DNA of 64,000 bases from an uncultured Actinomycetes bacterium (GTDB lineage Bacteria; Actinomycetota; Thermoleophilia; RBG-16-64-13). The notes under the pieces were generated by a model. The model was not told where the DNA came from, ran no database searches, and worked only from the letters and a program-made list of their open reading frames with translations. Positions 38,550-48,007 of this stretch are shown here, one piece after another. The translations under genes were made by a program, and so were the position numbers. How positions within the stretch are numbered: position 1 is the stretch's first letter; every line of letters begins with the position of its first letter. The DNA lies in contig CAVPLM010000005.1 in the NCBI GenBank assembly GCA_963706025.1, positions 704,001 to 768,000 of the forward strand, given 5' to 3'.

Positions 38550-39617
38550 TTACCCGCTGCCGGCGAAGCGCACGTTCAACAAGTATCCCCCGGCTTGATC
38601 GCGGTCGACGAGACGTCCGATGACCGCGGCGGCCGAGGTGTCTCTGGCCGTCAGCGCCTGGACCGCTTCCGCCGTCCTCTCGGACGGCACCGCCAGGACG
38701 AGACCGCCGGACGTCTGGGCATCGGCGCACAGGAGCCTCTGCCAGGATTCCAGCCCCGGCTCGAAGCTGGTCCAGGGCTGCACGTACTCCAGGTTGCGCT
38801 TGGTCCCCCCGGGGATCACGCCTTGTCGCGCCAGTGTCTCCGCTTCAAAGAGCAAGGGTAACCGGTCGTACCAGACTTCCGCCGCCACCCCACTTGCCCG
38901 GCACAACTCACTGAGGTGGCCCAGGAGGCCGAAACCGGTGATATCCGTAAGCGCACGCGCACCACAGGCTCGGGCCACCTCGGCTGCATCGCGATTGAGC
39001 GCCGCCATGGTGGCGGTGGCGGCGGCGATGGCCTCTGCCGAAGCGTTTCCCTGCTTGATGGCGGTCGCGACTACTCCGGTGCCGAGCGGCTTGGTGAGCA
39101 CGAGGACGTCGCCGGGCCTGCCGGCTGCATTGGTCAATTCCTGTCCCGGCTTGATCAAGCCGGTGACGGCCAGCCCATATTTGGGCTCGGGGTCGTCGAT
39201 GGTGTGGCCACCGACGATGGTGGCCTCGGCGAGCCGGGCCGTCTCTGCCCCACCCTGCAGGATCCTCGCCAGGTACTCGAGCGGCAGGACGCCCGATGGG
39301 AAGCAGACGATATTGAGGGCAGTCAGAGGCCGACCACCCATCGCGTAGACGTCGGAGAAGGCGTTGGCGGCGGCGATGCGGCCGAAATCGTAGGGGTCGT
39401 CGACCACCGGTGTGAAGAAATCGACCGTCTGCACCAGGGCGATCTCATCAGTAAGGCGGTAGATGGCCGCATCATCCAGCGTGTCCGCCCCCACCAGAAG
39501 GGCGGGATCTTCCACCCGCGGCAGCATATCCATGACCTGCCCCAAGTCCTTGGGGCCCAGTTTGCAGGCTCAGCCTGAGCCGTGCGAGAGGGTGGTCAGC
39601 CTCGGGACCGCCTCCAT
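38550..39617 (-). CDS. selD: Selenophosphate synthetase, selenocysteine form (U16)
   Basis: MEAVPRLTTLSHGSG-TGA-ACKLGPKDL in frame with DDAAIY, QTVDFFTP, DVYAMGG, DITGFGLLGH, QTSGGL; AAGGAGGTG RBS. Confidence 0.96.
39539..39556 (-). promoter_or_regulatory. SECIS-like hairpin of selD
   Basis: GCCCCAA-GGAC-UUGGGGC starting 13 nt after the UGA (39570-39572). Confidence 0.75.
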
Positions 39618-39867: not shown

Positions 39868-39892
39868 CCCCTTCGCTGCACAACGTGTGCGA

Positions 39893-39926
39893 TTGACACC
39901 TGCATGCTCTTGCAATAGAGTTGCAA
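39893..39926 (+). promoter_or_regulatory. Promoter with overlapping Fur-family-like operator
   Basis: TTGACA-N17-TAGAGT; palindrome TTGCAA-TAGAG-TTGCAA (39910-39926) covers the -10. Confidence 0.72.
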
Positions 39927-39931
39927 TAACC

Positions 39932-40384
39932 ATGACTCATCATGCCACCCGCACCTTGCAGGAATTGGGCTACCGACTGACCCCCCAGCGCACGCTCGTG
40001 TGGGACGTGCTTCGCGAGCACGGAGCCCACATGAGCGCCGAAGATGTCTGCGTCAGAGTTCAGGAGCAGTTCCCCCACATCAACATGTCCACCGTATATC
40101 GCACCCTGGAGCTATTGGTGGACCTCGATCTGGTGAGAGAGACGCATCTCGGTCCCACCCGGCGCTTCTTCGAAGTGGAAGAAGAGATCCCTCACCATCA
40201 CCTGGTCTGCGAGGTATGCGGTCGGGTGACTCACGTGCACGACGAAGACCTGGGAGATCTGAGCGCCCTTCTGCTTCGCGAGCAGGACCACTCGGTCCGA
40301 GAAGTGACGGTGTTCGGCCTTTGCAGCACCTGCCGAATCGACGCGGAAGGAGGAAGCCGGTGCACATCCCCGACGGATTCGTAG
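39932..40384 (+). CDS. Fur-family regulator (Nur/Zur-like)
   Basis: YRLTPQR, STVYRTLELL, HHHLVCEVCG, GLCSTC. Confidence 0.92.
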   Translation: MTHHATRTLQELGYRLTPQRTLVWDVLREHGAHMSAEDVCVRVQEQFPHINMSTVYRTLELLVDLDLVRETHLGPTRRFFEVEEEIPHHHLVCEVCGRVTHVHDEDLGDLSALLLREQDHSVREVTVFGLCSTCRIDAEGGSRCTSPTDS

Positions 40385-41424
40385 ACATCCCCACGGCTGT
40401 GGCCACAGGGGTGGTTTCGCTGGGTACGGTGGCCTATGCAGTGCGCAAGACCAGCAAGGACCTCGGCGAGCGGACCATCCCCCTCATGGGCGTGACCGCA
40501 GCCTTCATCTTCGCCGCCCAGATGCTCAACTTCCCGGTGGCCGGGGGCACGAGCGGGCACTTCCTGGGGGCGATGCTTGCGGTCGCGCTCTTGGGGGTGT
40601 GGCCGGCCCCCATAGTGATGACCGTGGTCCTCGTGGTCCAAGCCCTGGGCATGGCAGACGGGGGTATCACGGCGCTGGGAGCCAACGTGTTCAACATGGG
40701 TGTGGTCGCGGTGTTCGTCGGCTACGGGGTCTTTGTTGGACTCAAGAAGATCCTCCCCCGCACCCTCCCCGGCTATCTGGTCTCGGTGGCCGTGGCCTCT
40801 TGGATCTCGGTGGTCGCGGCGTCGGCCGCCGCCTCTGCCGAGCTGGCCATCTCGGGAACCGTGCCGCTGGGCGTGGCTCTCCCCGCGATGGTCTCCGTGC
40901 ACATGGTCATCGCAATCGGTGAGGCCCTGATCACCACCGTGGTGGCAGCCGCGGTCCTTGCCACCCGCCCCGATCTGGTCAAGACCTTCGACCTGCCTCT
41001 CGAGACCGTCCGCCGCACCGCCGGACGGCCGGTCGCCCGTATGAGCGGAAGAGCCCGCTTCTGGTCGTTCGTCGCCGGTGCGGTGGTCGTTGCCGTCGCC
41101 TTAGCGGTGTTCGTCTCTCCGTTCGCTTCCGGCTCTCCAGACGGCCTGGAGAAGGTGGCGGCGGACAGGGGCTTCGAAACCGCGGCGGCCGAGGAACCGA
41201 CGTGGGGCCTCTCTCCGCTCGGCGACTACCAGCTCCCCGGAGTCGGCAACGAGAAGGTGGCCACGGCGATCGCCGGGTTGTTGGGCACGGTCGTCCTTTT
41301 CGCCCTTGTCGTCCTCGCGGGGCGCGCATTGAGCGGCCGTCGACTCACCCCGGCCGTGCAGCCTGCGGGAACGAACAGAGGTTCCGGCAACGCGCCGCCC
41401 CCTGATCCCTCCGGCAAGCCCTAG
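40360..41424 (+). CDS. cbiM: ECF Ni/Co S component CbiM/NikM fused to a PDGLE (NikN-like) domain
   Basis: MHIPDG N-terminus (GTG 40360), FAAQMLNFP, GTSGH, ADGG, ASGSPDGLEKVA. Confidence 0.9.
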   Translation: MHIPDGFVDIPTAVATGVVSLGTVAYAVRKTSKDLGERTIPLMGVTAAFIFAAQMLNFPVAGGTSGHFLGAMLAVALLGVWPAPIVMTVVLVVQALGMADGGITALGANVFNMGVVAVFVGYGVFVGLKKILPRTLPGYLVSVAVASWISVVAASAAASAELAISGTVPLGVALPAMVSVHMVIAIGEALITTVVAAAVLATRPDLVKTFDLPLETVRRTAGRPVARMSGRARFWSFVAGAVVVAVALAVFVSPFASGSPDGLEKVAADRGFETAAAEEPTWGLSPLGDYQLPGVGNEKVATAIAGLLGTVVLFALVVLAGRALSGRRLTPAVQPAGTNRGSGNAPPPDPSGKP

Positions 41425-41464
41425 GGCGTGCCCTCGCCGGATAGCCGGATAGGATGACCACAAG

Positions 41465-42243
41465 ATGGCGCTGACCGGGGTCGACTCCCTACTCACCGAG
41501 ACCCGCGCAGTGGCAAAGCCGGCTGCACCGGCTCGATGCACGGGCCAAGATCCTGGGATTCATCGGGTTCACGGTGGTGGTGGTCACGACGCCGGCTCTG
41601 CCCGTATGGCCCTTCGTGCTCTACGCCGGGATCCTGTTCTTCCTCATCGGCGTCTCGCGTCTCCCGCTCAAGCATGTGCTCGGGCGCGCCCTCGTGGTGC
41701 TCCCCTTCATCCTGGTCGTTGCCATCTTCTTGCCTTTCTTCCATCAGACCGGAGGCGGCGGCTACAGCCTGGGCGGCATGCGGGTGACCGGCGAAGGCCT
41801 GCTCGTTCTGTGGAACGTGGGAGCGAAAGCCGTCCTGGGCGCACTCAGCATGATCGTGCTCGGTTCGACCACCACTTTCGCCGAGATGGTCTCGGGTTTC
41901 GAGCGCTTGAAGACGCCCAAGATCTTCGTCCTCATCGTGAGTTTCATGTACCGGTACAGCTTCGTGTTCATCGAGGAACTGGGGCGCATGCGGCGCGCTA
42001 TGACTGCCCGCAACTACCGAGCACGTTGGCTATGGAACGTGCCCACCCTGGGCTACATGCTGAGCGCCCTTTTTCTGCGCAGCTACAGCCGCGGGGAGCG
42101 GGTGTACGTAGCCATGCTCAGCCGTGGCTACGAGGGTACGGTGAGACTGCTCGAGGGGAGCCGGTTCGGAGCGGTCGACGCCGTCTTCCTCGGCGGCCTC
42201 TCTGCTGGCCGTGGTCTCGATCCGCGCGCTCTCAGCGCTGTGA
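41465..42243 (+). CDS. cbiQ: ECF transmembrane component (frameshifts near 41520 and 42200)
   Basis: LHRLDARAK, MYRY, AMTAR, RSYSRGERVYVAMLSRGY. Confidence 0.88.
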
Positions 42244-43061
42244 AGAGCGCCCTGAGTCCGAAGCTGCAAAGCCTGACCGGCAGGCCGTTCCCCGAAGGAC
42301 AGCCGCCGGCCGTGGAGGCCGAAGACCTCCATTTCGCCTATCCAGACGGCACTGAGGTCTTGCGGGGGGTGGGATTCACCATCCGGCAGGGCGAGTCGGT
42401 GGCCATCATCGGCCCCAACGGGGCGGGCAAGACCACTCTCCTCCTCCACCTGAACGGTATCCTCCGCGGCACGGGAAGCCTCCGCATATTCGGCCTAGCC
42501 GTCGAGGACAAGAACCTGCGCGAGATACGCCGCAAGGTAGGCGTAGTCTTCCAGGATCCTGAGGACCAGCTGTTCCTCACCAGCGTGGCCCAGGATGTGG
42601 CGTTCGGACCGGCCAACATGGGCCTAGAGAAAGACGAGATCGCCCTCCGGGTCAAAGAGGCGCTCGCTGCGGTGGGCATGCAGGGGTATGCAGACCGTCC
42701 CGCCCACCATCTTTCGTTCGGCCAGAAGAAGCGTGTCGCCACCGCGACCGTCCTGGCCATGCGTCCGGAGATCCTTGTGCTGGACGAACCTTCGTCCAAC
42801 CTGGACCCCAAGTCCCGGCGTCAGCTCATTCGCATCCTGCAAGACCTGCCGGTCACCAAGATCATAGTCACCCACGACCTTCCGGTGGCCTACGAGCTGT
42901 GCGACCGGGCGCTGATCTTGGCGGAGGGGCGGATCATGGCCGATGGACCCACAGAAGACATACTGCTCGACAAGGCCCTCCTCGCGGCTCACGATCTGGA
43001 GCTGCCCTACGGTTTCGTCCCACCCCGGTTGTCAGCTCATGGGCTCCGTGGGCGGCTGTAG
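42240..43061 (+). CDS. cbiO: ECF ATPase
   Basis: GPNGAGKT, FQDPEDQLF, LSFGQKKR, LDEP, THD. Confidence 0.92.
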   Translation: MKSALSPKLQSLTGRPFPEGQPPAVEAEDLHFAYPDGTEVLRGVGFTIRQGESVAIIGPNGAGKTTLLLHLNGILRGTGSLRIFGLAVEDKNLREIRRKVGVVFQDPEDQLFLTSVAQDVAFGPANMGLEKDEIALRVKEALAAVGMQGYADRPAHHLSFGQKKRVATATVLAMRPEILVLDEPSSNLDPKSRRQLIRILQDLPVTKIIVTHDLPVAYELCDRALILAEGRIMADGPTEDILLDKALLAAHDLELPYGFVPPRLSAHGLRGRL

Positions 43062-43284: not shown

Positions 43285-43488
43285 TCAGCGGTCGCCGCGG
43301 TCGGCGATCTGTTCGCGATACAGGTCGGTGTTGTACATCACGCATTCACTGTTCACGCAGTACCACACCCGGTAGGTGCTGCACTCGCCCGTCGAGCGAC
43401 TGACGCCTGTGCCGGTGCGCTCCGCTTCCTCGACCCGATCGGCGAGGGGCTTGCTGCAATTGATGCAGGTCTTGACCTCGTCTACCAC
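43285..43488 (-). CDS. Small Cys-containing putative zinc-ribbon protein (67 aa)
   Basis: AAGGGGAG RBS, GTG start, CINC...WYCVNSEC. Confidence 0.6.
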   Translation of the reverse strand: MVDEVKTCINCSKPLADRVEEAERTGTGVSRSTGECSTYRVWYCVNSECVMYNTDLYREQIADRGDR

Positions 43489-43514
43489 CTGACTCCCCTT
43501 CCCAGATAGCGTGT

Positions 43515-44114
43515 TTACCCTGTGCGCGTGCCCCGTGGCCGCCCCAACCGGCGACCGATGTCCTCGGCTACCGCTCGAGCCTCGGGGTGTTCCAGTATCT
43601 CGCCCTTGGCGTCCACGCCCGGGCACAGCAGATCGCCCGCCGGTGACACCTCCAGCATATGCCAGAAGGTGCGCATCACCAGGCGGCATCCGTCGAAGAC
43701 GTAGTCGAACGAAGTGCCGGAGCAACTCAGGAACGCCCCCAATCTCTCCGGGCGGCCCGGTTCGGTGATGGCTTGCTTCAGCACGTACTTGAGCGCCCAG
43801 AAAGGCTGGCAGCGGTCGATCACCATCTTGGGGACCGCCGGAATGCCCATGGAGTACACCGGGGCGGCCAGTACGATCGAATCGGCGTTCCGCAGTTGCG
43901 GATAGAGCAGATGCATGTCGTCCTTCTGTATGCATACGCCATCGCGCGAGCAGGCGTCGCAGGCCCGGCAGCCGTGAAGATCGAGGTCGCAGAGCCGGAA
44001 CTTGACCACTTCGGCGCCCTCGTCCGCGGCTGCGGCCAGGCACCAGTCGAGAAGGGTCTCAGTGTTCCCGTCACGACGGGCGCTACCCGCCAGACCGAGC
44101 ACGGTCATGGTCAC
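43515..44114 (-). CDS. Iron-sulfur flavoprotein (flavodoxin-like FMN reductase family)
   Basis: GSARRDGNT, CRACDAC..C..DDM, APVY, IDRCQ. Confidence 0.9.
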   Translation of the reverse strand: MTMTVLGLAGSARRDGNTETLLDWCLAAAADEGAEVVKFRLCDLDLHGCRACDACSRDGVCIQKDDMHLLYPQLRNADSIVLAAPVYSMGIPAVPKMVIDRCQPFWALKYVLKQAITEPGRPERLGAFLSCSGTSFDYVFDGCRLVMRTFWHMLEVSPAGDLLCPGVDAKGEILEHPEARAVAEDIGRRLGRPRGTRTG

Positions 44115-44119
44115 CTACT

Positions 44120-45328
44120 CTACTCCCCCGCCGTCTTGACTTTGCGGGCCACCTGCCGGCCCAATTCCACGCATGCTGCCAGCTCGTCCTCGCTGGGCCT
44201 GTACTTGACCTCGATCGGCTCCACCATGTCGAGGCCCATGGCCCTGAGTTCCGCATCGATCTGCTTCACGGCCCCTCCGGCCCACCCACAGGAGCCGTAG
44301 GCTCCGGAGATGCGCTTGCGCGGCCGAAGACCCCGGATGTAGGTGAGGAACTCCCCTACTGTCGGGAACATGTTGTTGTTGAGGGTAGGCGACCCCACCA
44401 GGAAAGCGCGGGACTCGAGGACCATCCGCGCCACCTCCGACCGGGGGTTGCTGCTGAGCCTCGCGACCACGCAGTCCACGCCCTCTTGAGCGACGCCGTC
44501 CGCGATGGCCATGGTCATCTGCTCGGTGGAGTGCCACATGGTGTCGTAGATCAGCGACACCCGCTCCGGCGCCTGGAAGTCGCTCCACCCCGCATAGGCC
44601 TCCACAATGCGAGCCACGTCCTCGGGCCGGCGCCATATGACCCCGTGGCTGGGGCCGATCGCCTCGATCTCCAGACCCAGCTCGCCGATCTTGGCCAGCA
44701 TCTTCTGGATCTGAGTGCCGAATGGCATGAGGATGTTGGCGTAGTACTTACTGGCCTCTTCCATGACCACGCTCAAGTCGACTTCGTCGGCGAAGCGCTT
44801 GGAGGTGGCCAAGTGCTGACCGAAGGCATCGTTCGGCAGAAGGGTCTTGGCCTGCTTCACGTAGGTGAACATGCTGTCCGGCCAGTGCAGCATGGGCGCC
44901 TCGATGAACTGCAGAGTATTGCGACCGAGGGAGACCTCGTCTCCGGTGCCGACCACCTGGATATTCCAACCATCCACGGTCGCGCCCCCGTAGTAGACGG
45001 CAAGCACGTCCTTGGCCCTTTTCGAACAGAAGATCCGCTCGGGGCTCAGCTGCTCCACCAGCCAGGGGATGGCCCCGGAGTGATCGGGCTCCACGTGGTT
45101 GATGATCAGGTAGTCGACTGGGCGGAGGCCGCAGCAGCCGCGCACGCGAGCCAGCACCTCCGGGCCGAAGCCCTCCCGGCATCCGTCGACCAGAGCCACC
45201 TTCTCGTCCAGGATCAGATACGCGTTATAGGTGGTCCCCCGGGGGGTCTCGTAGCCGTGGAAATCACGGACGTTCCAGTCGATGGCACCCGTCCACCATA
45301 TGTCGTCCTTCAGCAGATACCGCTCCAT
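44120..45328 (-). CDS. fprA: Flavodiiron protein (O2/NO reductase)
   Basis: GTTYNAYL, NHVEPDHSG, HWPDSM, NDAFGQH, flavodoxin YDTMWHST, GSPTLN. Confidence 0.95.
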   Translation of the reverse strand: MERYLLKDDIWWTGAIDWNVRDFHGYETPRGTTYNAYLILDEKVALVDGCREGFGPEVLARVRGCCGLRPVDYLIINHVEPDHSGAIPWLVEQLSPERIFCSKRAKDVLAVYYGGATVDGWNIQVVGTGDEVSLGRNTLQFIEAPMLHWPDSMFTYVKQAKTLLPNDAFGQHLATSKRFADEVDLSVVMEEASKYYANILMPFGTQIQKMLAKIGELGLEIEAIGPSHGVIWRRPEDVARIVEAYAGWSDFQAPERVSLIYDTMWHSTEQMTMAIADGVAQEGVDCVVARLSSNPRSEVARMVLESRAFLVGSPTLNNNMFPTVGEFLTYIRGLRPRKRISGAYGSCGWAGGAVKQIDAELRAMGLDMVEPIEVKYRPSEDELAACVELGRQVARKVKTAGE

Positions 45329-45664: not shown

Positions 45665-46651
45665 TCAAACTCGAAGTCGCCTGCCCAGGACAAGCTGGGC
45701 TCCGGTCGTCTCCAGGTCCAGGACCTCGATCTCGACAAAACCGGCCGCCGTAAGCCAATCACGGTACTGTTCCTCAGTCCAGACCCCACCCTCCTCGGTC
45801 GCCTGAAGCATGTTCACCGCGAACCGGGCCGCCCGAGGGCTCCGTCCCCACACGTGATCCTGGATGGCGATCGTCCCCCCAGGGAGAAGGATCGAAAAGA
45901 CCTCCTGGGTCACGCGCCCGTTCGTCACCGGGCCGTAGATGTGTAGGACGTTGCCCAGATACACCAGGTCGAACGGGCCGACGGGAAGGGATTGCGTGAA
46001 GTCCCCCCCCACCAGGGCGATATCACTCCCCTCGTCGCCCAGGAACTCGCGGGCAAGGGGGAGCACGTTCTCCCGGTCGAACAACGTGGCCCGCACCCCA
46101 CATCGGGAGAAGTGCCGGGCCACGTGGCCAACGGCGCCCCCCACATCCAGCATGGTGCGGGCCGGACCAGAGTAGGCCAGACACCTCTCGACTATCTCGT
46201 CGAGCACGGCCGGGTCGCGCTCCCCCATCGCCCCCACCAGGGTGCGGACGTCGCGTTGGGCAGGATCGCGAGGAAGAGGCCGCCCCGTGCGGATGACCTC
46301 GGGCAGCTCGAGCCAGCCCCGCAGCTTGTTCACCTGGTGCATCAGGCCGAACCGCTCCGATTCCGGACCCTCGTCCACAAGATGCGCTCTCCCCAGCGCC
46401 GATAACCGATAGAGGGCGCCCCCGTCGCCAGGGTCCTCCGGAGCGCCTCCGAGCCGCTCGACGACGCCCTCCCCCGCCAGAGCCTCGAGCACGATTCGAG
46501 TCGCCCGAGGATGTGCTTCCGCTCTCTGGGCCGCGGCCTCGGCCGTCAAAGCTTCGCCCGTCGCCAAGGCGTCGATCAGACCGGAGCGCAGGGCCCCAGC
46601 GAGCAACAGCAGCCGCTCCACCGCTGCTCCATCTACCAGCGAGTTCTTCAT
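45665..46651 (-). CDS. SAM-dependent O-methyltransferase (Methyltransf_2 type)
   Basis: N-terminal dimerisation region, MLDVGGAVG, GGDF, GNVLH, AAGF; ATG 46651 overlaps the upstream stop (ATGA). Confidence 0.88.
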   Translation of the reverse strand: MKNSLVDGAAVERLLLLAGALRSGLIDALATGEALTAEAAAQRAEAHPRATRIVLEALAGEGVVERLGGAPEDPGDGGALYRLSALGRAHLVDEGPESERFGLMHQVNKLRGWLELPEVIRTGRPLPRDPAQRDVRTLVGAMGERDPAVLDEIVERCLAYSGPARTMLDVGGAVGHVARHFSRCGVRATLFDRENVLPLAREFLGDEGSDIALVGGDFTQSLPVGPFDLVYLGNVLHIYGPVTNGRVTQEVFSILLPGGTIAIQDHVWGRSPRAARFAVNMLQATEEGGVWTEEQYRDWLTAAGFVEIEVLDLETTGAQLVLGRRLRV

Positions 46652-47868
46652 GACTTCTCCAAGGGGAAGCCGGCCGCCTTCCATTCGCCCACACCACCGG
46701 CAAAATCCCGCACGTTCGTGAAACCCAACTGTCGCAGCTTATCAGCTGCGATAGCGCTGGCTTCTCAGGTGAAGGCGTCGCAGTAGAGGACGATGGGCTC
46801 GTCCACCTTGAACCGCTGCCGGGCCTCGCGGGCCAGACCCCTGAAGTCCATCCACTCGGACCCGGGTAGATGCCCTGCCCGCCAGTGCTTCTCACCCAGC
46901 ACGTCGACAAGGCGGAAATGCTCCTGTCCATCCATCAATCCCCGAAGATCCTGGACCGTGATCGTACCGACGCTCGGTCGGCCGGCCTCGGGATCGTAGA
47001 AGACCATGTAGGCGGCGGCGCTGTAGTATCCGGCCTTTCGGAAGATGCGCCGCCGGCCGGGCTCAGCCGCATCGATAACCGCGGCCGGCCGGCTACCTTC
47101 TCTCCAAACAGCTTCGGTGCACCGGCCAAGCGCCCAGGCCAGGTCGTCCTCGCCTGTGTGCGCGACGGCCAGATCGAGTAGCTCGTGCGTCCCGTCTCCT
47201 CCGTCAAGCCGAGCGATCACGGCAACAGGATGCCCGTCCTGCAGCAGCGCCCAGCTGCGCCCCTGGCGGGCCAAGGTATCGAGTTCGGCGACGATCGAGG
47301 CCTGGTCGGCCTTCGAGTGGCTATGCGATCCGGGCTCGTGCTCGTGCTCACCGCCGGCACGTTCCAGCAACTCCCTAAGACCAGGCAGGTGCTCGGGGCC
47401 AAGCTCGACGACCACAACCCCCGCGGGAGCCTGTGCCGCGGCTTCGCCCGCGATCTCACCCGGCTCCTCGGGTAGCATGACCAAAGCAGCCGCCTCCACC
47501 TCGTTTCCCCTAGCCAGCAACGTGGCGTTTAGCCGGCAGTCGTCGGTGCGGACCAGGTAGGCGGTGGGACGCAGGCGCTCCCTGACCAGATCGAGCACGT
47601 CCTCGTAGCGGGTTTGGTGAGCGGCCGTCAGGTACAACTCGACCACAGTAATGTGCGTGTGCCCGCTATGCGGCCTCTCGACGGCCAAGACGTAGCCCAA
47701 GTCCTGCTGTGGCCCTTCGGCTCCGCCGGCCTCTTGGACCAAGTGAGCCGCCGCCTCCCGGCTCAAGCGAGAGTAGAACTCGGGTACGACCGCCAACGAA
47801 GATCCGCGCTGTCTCTCTTCGCGCAGGCTCGCGATCCGTTCTGGATCGACCTGAGTCAGCTCCATCAT
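46648..47868 (-). CDS. Selenoprotein: GNAT-like region + His-rich linker + rhodanese domain with CxxxxU (406 aa)
   Basis: The ORF track stops at TGA 46765-46767 inside the rhodanese fold; reading through gives YCDAFT-U-EASAIAADKLRQLGFTNVRDFAGGVGEWKAAGFPLEKS. Confidence 0.87.
46732..46751 (-). promoter_or_regulatory. SECIS-like hairpin of the rhodanese gene
   Basis: UCGCAGCU-GAUA-AGCUGCGA starting 13 nt after the UGA. Confidence 0.78.
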
Positions 47869-48007
47869 CTACTTCCCTGGCGGACGACGAACGAGAGCAT
47901 GGCCATCTCCTCGTTACCGATCGCCGCGGCGATCGGCGGGTGTTGCTGGACCACCCCGTGGACGAACGCGCTGGTCTTCCCTTTCCCGTAGCACTAGAAT
48001 CCCACGC

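Follow-up and report, generated by a model that had tools for sequence, protein, structure and literature searches.

Several proteins with a rhodanese homology domain are known to contain selenocysteine (Sec, U). A 2026 review (PMC13188914) distinguishes five such forms, with the motifs UxxS (form 1, e.g. WP_010941598.1), UxxG (form 2), CxU (form 3, NF041203), UxxG (form 4) and UxxxxU (form 5, TsoB, NF045694), and a 2022 review gives three forms. Forms 1-5, as described in the former, have a rhodanese homology domain in common, and their Sec lies in or beside the active-site loop. Here we report on a gene of an uncultured actinobacterium, located in a 64,000-nucleotide stretch of DNA (assembly GCA_963706025.1, contig CAVPLM010000005.1, positions 704,001 to 768,000; the whole of it is called the window below), that very probably encodes a true selenoprotein in which a Sec-containing rhodanese domain is fused to a tandem GNAT-like module (Table 1). 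A first-pass annotation, made from the sequence alone, had proposed this reading, and had remarked that Sec-containing rhodaneses exist and that the architecture was not recognisable from any characterised selenoprotein. Both remarks were borne out: the former is an established kind of protein with five forms (PMC13188914), and the latter is in line with the comparison that follows.

At the level of the motif, the U-E-A-S sequence of the new protein fits the UxxS of form 1. The C-x4-U spacing equals that of U-x4-U in TsoB, with which only this spacing is common, and Sec is found two residues after the Cys in the CxU form and five residues after it here. GNAT domains, which the protein reported here has, are not part of the description of any of forms 1-5 in the 2026 review, from which the words GNAT, acetyltransferase and CxxxxU are absent (PMC13188914). 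No NCBIfam model reached its cut-off (rhodanese_LYCAU scored 40.4 bits versus 115 and seleno_TsoB 29.9 bits versus 805). Literature searches aimed at the family, judged by the titles and abstracts that they listed, gave nothing on it, although the supplements of selenoproteome surveys could list it. The protein is a selenoprotein of a new family-level type, Sec rhodaneses as such being already known, and it adds a well-supported family whose architecture and C-x4-U position lie outside NCBIfam and the 2026 family list.

The gene is called as an open reading frame of 367 codons on the reverse strand (46765..47868), with the C-terminal residues VLYCDAFT followed by TGA. When this TGA is taken as U, the frame runs on for 38 codons (EASAIAADKLRQLGFTNVRDFAGGVGEWKAAGFPLEKS) to a second TGA (46648-46650), giving a product of 406 residues with U368 and, five residues earlier, C363. 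As the first-pass annotation had stated, the first TGA falls inside the rhodanese active-site loop (YC363-DAFT-U368-EAS) and the second overlaps the start codon of the next gene (46649-46651) as ATGA. In the public gene calls most homologue rows cover 90% of the query and end at the first TGA; public annotation thus systematically shortens this tandem-GNAT rhodanese selenoprotein.

The Pfam Rhodanese profile (PF00581) matched residues 305-399 over its positions 2-102 of 102, with 47.1 bits against a cut-off of 22.2. As this match runs across the TGA, the domain is complete only when the TGA is read through, in agreement with the earlier claim that the 38 additional codons complete the fold. 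Residues 298-406 superposed on 3tp9_A with a Z of 17.2 and a root mean square deviation (rmsd) of 1.6 over 104 residues (32% identity), on GlpE (1gmx) with a Z of 15.7 and on the rhodanese domains of EanB (6kvy) with a Z of 14.3. Catalytic sulfurtransferase rhodaneses have an active-site loop of six residues. The loop of the new protein departs from this by an insertion of two residues between C363 and U368: in HMMER comparisons to solved structures C363 paired with the Cys in the loops of 3tp9 and 6mxv, and the loop was two residues longer (lyCdaftCeaS versus vyCr--tggrS of 3tp9), which puts U368 in the same loop, five residues past the canonical Cys. In the structural model U368 lies just ahead of a helix that starts at about residue 370. 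C363 was nearly invariant among 50 sequences, and one of the orthologous loci (L063) reads YS at this position.

A C-terminal rhodanese domain with the Cys in the same position is also found in the fusion proteins 3tp9 and 5ve3 (persulfide dioxygenase), 3ict (coenzyme A (CoA)-disulfide reductase) and 3ntd (NADH-dependent persulfide reductase). In those proteins, however, the partner is a metallo-beta-lactamase or a flavoprotein, whereas here it is a pair of pseudo-GNAT domains, and Sec is found in a loop extended by two residues. A search for shorter relatives of residues 296-406 yielded 10 proteins from 16 candidates, which does not argue that stand-alone relatives are lacking; the best seven of them (61-86% identity) look like fragments of members of the same family.

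The evidence that the TGA is translated came from the comparison of homologous proteins, orthologous loci and related genomes (labelled P, L and G, respectively, with G000 for the genome that holds the window). A word-based protein search returned 98 proteins, 89 of them with an E-value up to 5e-61. Five of these 89 (P0011, P0013, P0025, P0032 and P0081) span 99-100% of the query, and in all five a Cys is aligned to U368; the shorter rows that were aligned (P0003, P0015, P0026, P0035 and P0087) end with ...FT, exactly at the TGA. Six-frame searches over 41 related genomes gave full-length matches with one internal TGA in most genomes of the same family and a match without a stop in G004. When the loci of the related genomes, the GTDB species representatives and metagenome contigs were pooled, 79 loci with the loop motif were obtained, representing 61 distinct segments of 150 nt, in which codon 368 is TGA in 57, TGT in three and TGC in one. 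In the codons past the TGA the amino acids are kept and, outside a hairpin described below, the synonymous sites vary freely (e.g. six codons for Leu +13 and four each for Gly +14, Thr +16 and Val +18), indicating that translation continues here and that purifying selection acts on these codons. The first-pass annotation had named homologues with Cys or TGA at position 368 and a conserved frame beyond it as the check on its proposal, and this is the pattern that was found.

The alternative, that the TGA truly ends translation, stems from a sequencing error or marks a lesion in a pseudogene, leaving a product of 367 residues with an inactive rhodanese domain, agrees with the public gene calls, which terminate at this codon. 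Truncation would however cost the rhodanese fold its last helix-strand-helix, and neither the purifying selection on the 38 downstream codons, nor the Cys codons in four sequences, nor the constraint on the synonymous sites of the hairpin would be expected for such a product. In addition, the UGA site is spanned by contigs of three DNA runs, each from a different study and one perhaps the source sample, with no differing letter at 46765-46767 among the matches listed. The occurrence of the same TGA in 57 distinct genomic and metagenomic sequences, the Cys codons in four others and these contigs rule out the base-call error that had been considered at first, as well as a private nonsense mutation, and we regard the alternative as a whole as highly improbable.

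In bacterial SECIS (selenocysteine insertion sequence) elements, according to the criteria used in bSECISearch, the apical loop lies about 16-37 nt from the UGA and its first base is G. The hairpin downstream of the UGA agrees with this, since its loop starts at +22 and begins with the G of GAUA. Its stem is perfect over 8 bp, and the whole of what had been claimed for it at first pass (8 bp, a G-first tetraloop, a start 13 nt after the UGA and the same spacing as in selD) was borne out. A stretch of 71 nt that contains it folds with -26.5 kcal/mol (z = -2.67), and 2 of 200 shuffled sequences fold equally well. Among the 57 distinct Sec forms the codons that build the hairpin are nearly frozen, with GAT for Asp +8 in 57 of 57, AAG for Lys +9 in 57 of 57, CTG for Leu +10 in 55 of 57, CGA for Arg +11 in 57 of 57 and GCT for Ala +7 in 47 of 57. 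The background frequencies of these codons in the same genes are 29%, 75%, 42%, 12% and 12.5% (n = 1311 Asp, 405 Lys, 2205 Leu, 2020 Arg and 2642 Ala codons), respectively. In the four Cys forms the peptide AADKLR is unchanged and the codons drift (GAC in three of the four, AGG in two, AAA in one and CTC in one). What carries the argument for a SECIS function is that, within one alignment, the hairpin codons are frozen and the codons next to them vary freely. RNAalifold recovered seven stem pairs and four outer pairs from the 57 Sec-form segments. Judged by this pattern of constraint, the hairpin 13 nt 3' of the UGA is a predicted SECIS element, and annotators gain from it the pattern UGA-N13-stem-GAUA, of which the 13-nt spacing is common with selD of the same genome.

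One of the Cys orthologues (L052, 4108-4173, forward strand, codon TGC) has retained the complete hairpin sequence GCGGCTGATAAGCTGCGA. This retention points to a recent change from Sec to Cys and suggests that the hairpin in L052 is a fossil SECIS element.

The genome that contains the window (an assembly of 3.66 Mb in 30 contigs, 92% complete) has the complete machinery for Sec incorporation that the first-pass annotation had set as a check: a tRNA-Sec (79.1 bits versus a gathering score of 47; identified by ARAGORN as tRNA-SeC with anticodon tca), SelA (449.7 bits) and SelB (winged-helix domain 3, 65.8 bits). The genes for these three sit away from selD, on contig C3. The selD gene lies in the window and itself encodes a selenoprotein (TIGR00476 at 394 bits), with a UGA at 39570-39572 in the sequence MEAVPRLTTLSHGSG-U-ACKLG (SHGSG-U-ACK) and a hairpin of 7 bp with a GGAC loop that starts 13 nt after this UGA; the listing of open reading frames shortens it to 331 amino acids. 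Taken together, the Sec/Cys pairs at position 368, the conserved downstream frame, the Sec-specific constraint on the hairpin and the presence of the machinery sustain the selenoprotein reading, and the SelA/SelB/tRNA-Sec system almost certainly decodes the TGA at 46765-46767 as Sec.

Within the same GTDB family 19 of 24 genomes contained a match at an E-value up to 1e-20. Six further families of this class, represented by 16 genomes, gave none at this threshold, and their best match (4.7e-11) covered only the rhodanese domain. The named records were metagenome-assembled genomes (MAGs) labelled Gaiellales, Thermoleophilia or Actinomycetota. As far as searched, the protein family thus appears confined to one family-level group of uncultured Gaiellales/Thermoleophilia. 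In a quick maximum likelihood tree (IQ-TREE) of 50 family members, 45 of which were labelled as Sec forms (17 confirmed at the DNA level and 28 assigned because the sequence is cut short where the TGA would be), the five Cys rows were found at four places, at least three of which are forced by branches with SH-aLRT support of at least 95, each among Sec rows. This nesting suggests that Sec is likely the ancestral state and that Cys arose at least three times. The genome with the Cys form G004 retains a Sec-containing selD and selA, indicating that the replacement by Cys did not follow the loss of the Sec trait. The independent replacements, at least three in number, form a natural series for studying the retention of Sec. 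Several orthologues in MAGs (L026, L027/L045, L029, L041, L046 and L049) were split over frames or lacked a usable start, and represent either assembly frameshift errors or decaying copies.

The N-terminal module of about 290 residues was modelled together with the rhodanese domain by AlphaFold2 (alignment of 50 rows), with a mean predicted local distance difference test score (pLDDT) of 89.6 and a predicted template modelling score (pTM) of 0.77. The best match found by Foldseek among the solved structures was 3iwg (E 1.1e-13), followed by the tandem GNATs 2wpw, 7q3a, VipF and MshD. With VIA-align, residues 2-293 of the model superposed on 3iwg_A with a Z of 23.0 and an rmsd of 3.5 over 257 residues, and on the MshD structures 1ozp and 2c27 with a Z of 16.3 and 15.9. 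The module resembles the tandem GNATs 3iwg (Colwellia, function unknown), MshD, 2wpw/2wpx (clavulanate pathway), VipF and MAB_4324 in having two consecutive GNAT folds per chain. Unlike them it has a rhodanese domain fused to it and lacks both a Pfam acetyltransferase match and the acetyl-CoA motif, and its identity to them is 10-15%.

In GNATs the pyrophosphate of acetyl-CoA is bound by the motif Q/R-x-x-G-x-G/A between beta4 and alpha3. This motif is absent from the beta4-alpha3 loops of both domain 1 (LTAAHQTRYED) and domain 2 (AHTGEDDLA), and no Pfam acetyltransferase family matched the module at an E-value up to 0.1, PF00581 being the sole family reported for the protein. The proposal of two GNAT folds without a clear acetyl-CoA-binding motif is supported by these results, and the N-terminal 293 residues are, judged by the model, best described as two predicted GNAT folds that have lost the acetyl-CoA signature. 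In domain 1, H67, H70, H72, T74, E77, R87, E89, D90, D109, C111 and E125 are invariant or nearly so across the 50 sequences, with R87, E89 and D90 as the conserved columns of the beta4-alpha3 region. In the model these polar residues are located on beta3-beta4, at the start of alpha3 and on the beta5-alpha4 turn, and would thus lie around the usual GNAT cleft. The His-rich linker of the first-pass annotation is present as the stretch GEHEHEPGSHSHS (residues 173-185) and did not hold up as a conserved feature, since it lies in an insertion that is disordered and varies in length and content across the 50 sequences and is missing from the deeper branches; residues 175-187 are the only ones with a pLDDT below 50. 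A non-iterated phmmer search with the module against 1.84 billion representative proteins gave 20 relatives at an E-value up to 0.001, the best of which (e.g. P0008 and P0064) are also in the family list. The nearest entries in the ESM Atlas were unnamed clusters of a 'hypothetical protein' (score 0.95), a few of them with PF00583 in 19-99% of their members, and we treat these as leads only.

Table 1. Location of the selenoprotein gene, its domains and signals, and neighbouring genes in the window
Feature	Position	Strand	Evidence or remark
Full selenoprotein CDS (coding sequence), 406 residues, including the true stop TGA 46648-46650	46648..47868	-	sequence read-through; orthologues read through likewise
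UGA codon read as selenocysteine (U368)	46765..46767	-	TGA/Cys codons in orthologous segments, Cys homologues, contigs of three DNA runs
C363 codon, canonical rhodanese catalytic Cys position	46780..46782	-	pairs with Cys of the rhodanese domain in 3tp9 and of others
SECIS-like hairpin, 8-bp stem UCGCAGCU/AGCUGCGA, GAUA loop	46732..46751	-	starts 13 nt after UGA; synonymous-site invariance
Rhodanese domain, residues 298-406, C363-x4-U368-x2-S loop	46651..46977	-	PF00581 47.1 bits; 3tp9_A superposition
GNAT-like domain 1, residues 1-133	47470..47868	-	secondary structure beta1-alpha1-alpha2-beta2-4-alpha3-beta5-alpha4-beta6; Z 23 to 3iwg
GNAT-like domain 2, residues 151-293	46990..47418	-	AlphaFold2 model, Foldseek, VIA-align
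His-rich insertion, residues 173-187	47308..47352	-	disordered, variable between orthologues
Family-2 O-methyltransferase	45665..46651	-	PF00891 and Dimerisation domain; start overlaps selenoprotein stop as ATGA
Cys-rich DUF2769 protein, 70 amino acids	45337..45549	-	PF10967 48.5 bits; 9 of 19 loci (flank 3.5 kb or more)
Flavodiiron protein, ODP/metallo-beta-lactamase and flavodoxin domains	44120..45328	-	Pfam; 17 of 19 loci (flank 3.5 kb or more)
252-amino-acid conserved protein, last gene of the cluster	43285..44043	-	13 of 19 loci (flank 3.5 kb or more)
CbiM/CbiQ/CbiO	40000-43061	+	nickel or cobalt ECF-type transporter
Fur gene	39887..40384	+	
selD, selenoprotein	38550..39617	-	TIGR00476

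The selenoprotein gene is the first gene of a conserved cluster on the same strand. Neighbours were counted in distinct loci, 53 of which have a downstream flank of 1.1 kb or more and 19 one of 3.5 kb or more. The association with the O-methyltransferase gene is the most conserved, as it was found downstream on the same strand in 50 of the 53 and in 19 of the 19 loci, and within 10 nt of the selenoprotein gene in 23 of the 61 distinct loci. The enzyme is of a small-molecule type (nearest solved relative MfnG, 7ux6, E 1.7e-19) in which the S-adenosylmethionine (SAM) motif DVGGAVGH and H237 are conserved. The flavodiiron protein scored 390 bits with the NCBIfam flavorubredoxin-type models, under their cut-offs, and the 252-amino-acid protein had no match in Pfam or NCBIfam. 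In a deep subclade the selenoprotein gene is directly followed by a gene for a glutaredoxin of about 100 residues (PF00462, 42.7 bits) that has an in-frame TGA of its own in SPT-U-xDC (UxxC), found at L047 (5147-5455, forward strand) and in the same position at L018, L019, L022, L028, L043, L044, L048, L072, L073, L076, L080, L083, L084 and L091, with Cys instead (CxxC) in L020, L021 and L077; a rubrerythrin gene (PF02915) follows the methyltransferase gene there. In G014 and G008, where rubrerythrin is likewise present, we found further downstream genes for NADH:rubredoxin oxidoreductase (NROR)-like proteins (Pyr_redox_2/Rubredoxin_C), FMN reductases (FMN_red) and a helix-turn-helix regulator; next in order are a Fur-family regulator accompanied by a CbiMQO transporter and, lastly, selD. 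The order of the Fur gene, the Cbi genes and selD in the window is as in these two genomes.

Rubrerythrin, flavodiiron protein and NROR are the classic set for defence against oxygen and peroxide in anaerobes. We propose that C363 and U368 could act as a redox-active thiol/selenol pair, either by forming a transient selenenylsulfide or by attack of the selenolate on a Cys-persulfide, and that this pair would reduce or transfer oxidised species of sulfur, selenium or oxygen. The cluster of His, Glu, Asp and Cys residues in the cleft of pseudo-GNAT domain 1 may bind a substrate or a metal, and the protein may work with the translationally coupled O-methyltransferase. The remainder of the operon would serve the defence of an anaerobe against oxygen, peroxide and nitric oxide, with the flavodiiron protein, in the deep branches the Sec-glutaredoxin and rubrerythrin, and further downstream the NROR-like protein and FMN reductase; in the deep branches the Sec-glutaredoxin could re-reduce the C-U pair. 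A role in redox or stress defence, taken by itself, is tentative, somewhat short of even odds. For the best explanation as a whole, with Sec decoding, architecture and this role together, we estimate a probability of roughly 0.65.

MshD is the mycothiol synthase and EanB an ergothioneine enzyme. The likeness in fold of the GNAT module to the former and of the rhodanese domain to the rhodanese domains of the latter, the coupling by ATGA to a methyltransferase of small-molecule type with conserved SAM motif and His, and the conserved polar residues that line the domain 1 cleft as a conceivable substrate site would also fit a scheme in which the GNAT module, the rhodanese and the O-methyltransferase make or modify a protective low-molecular-weight thiol or selenol, with Sec as the nucleophile in atom transfer and not as a redox centre. 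However, these fold matches are generic for the superfamilies concerned, neither GNAT domain has the acetyl-CoA motif or a Pfam acetyltransferase match, and the start of alpha3, the usual site for the CoA pyrophosphate, holds R87, E89 and D90, two of which are acidic. Moreover, the operon contains no other biosynthetic genes, its remaining conserved genes being those of electron transfer and detoxification. We consider such a biosynthetic role unlikely, though worth weighing.

The position of selD is relevant to another possible role. Of the 19 related genomes that carry the selenoprotein gene, 15 have the Sec-containing selD 2.3-18 kb downstream of it on the same strand of the same contig, with the closest association in G007, where selD directly follows the cluster (L034), and in G024, where it lies 2.3 kb from the end of the selenoprotein gene. 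Rhodanese can bind selenium in vitro. It could thus be imagined that the rhodanese loop carries selenium as perselenide or selenotrisulfide to SelD, or detoxifies selenide together with the methyltransferase. Against this, what separates the cluster from selD varies from genome to genome (Fur and CbiMQO in the window, GyrI-like and other genes in G014), and selD pairs divergently with the Fur gene (in the window, in G008 (L092) and in G014 (L094)) rather than with the selenoprotein operon. The Cys-form genome G004 retains selD and selA, so that the protein is not obviously tied to the use of Sec. As all genomes belong to one family, the synteny may be merely inherited, and is weak evidence for either the biosynthetic or the selenium-trafficking role; the latter seems quite improbable to us.

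Several observations weigh against the combined explanation of a Sec-decoding redox or stress-defence protein. The support for Sec decoding is comparative, and none of the 11 pairs recovered by RNAalifold among the 57 Sec segments showed a compensatory double change, so that the hairpin is not supportable by covariation and its support is the invariance of synonymous sites among related sequences. Rfam gave no match in 46600-46850 at an E-value up to 10. The contigs from an RNA library (one metatranscriptome run) cover 46853-47102 and 47704-47939 at a depth of about 2, with the UGA outside this coverage. No activity can be named for the pseudo-GNAT module, and the functional reading draws on gene neighbourhood within one family of related, non-independent genomes, in which the proximity of selD fits selenium handling equally well. 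The Sec-glutaredoxin and rubrerythrin genes are absent from the window, and a glutaredoxin was not found with one query in the genome it belongs to (92% complete).

A bolder reading would be that of a new class of selenoenzyme, in which a His3/Glu/Asp/Cys site has replaced the acetyl-CoA site of a repurposed tandem GNAT. The scaffold would bind a metal or small molecule and present it to the Cys-x4-Sec loop, and the enzyme, with the O-methyltransferase, would make or recycle a methylated sulfur or selenium protectant in the oxygen defence of anaerobic Gaiellales-like actinobacteria. We hold this to be distinctly unlikely; if true, it would represent a chemistry without a characterised counterpart. 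The cluster itself is a selenium-dependent operon that has been conserved in a lineage of actinobacteria which, though uncultured, is abundant in sediments and soils; the deep branches add a second Sec/Cys protein to it.

Two minor observations concern the genes downstream of the methyltransferase. In L042 (the locus of the Cys-form genome G004) the methyltransferase, the DUF2769 protein and the 252-amino-acid protein are present, and no match to the flavodiiron protein was found within 4 kb downstream. In the window the DUF2769 gene is found directly before the flavodiiron protein gene and its product has two Cys clusters of the CxCxxC type; that it is a small metal-binding electron carrier replacing rubredoxin is only a guess.

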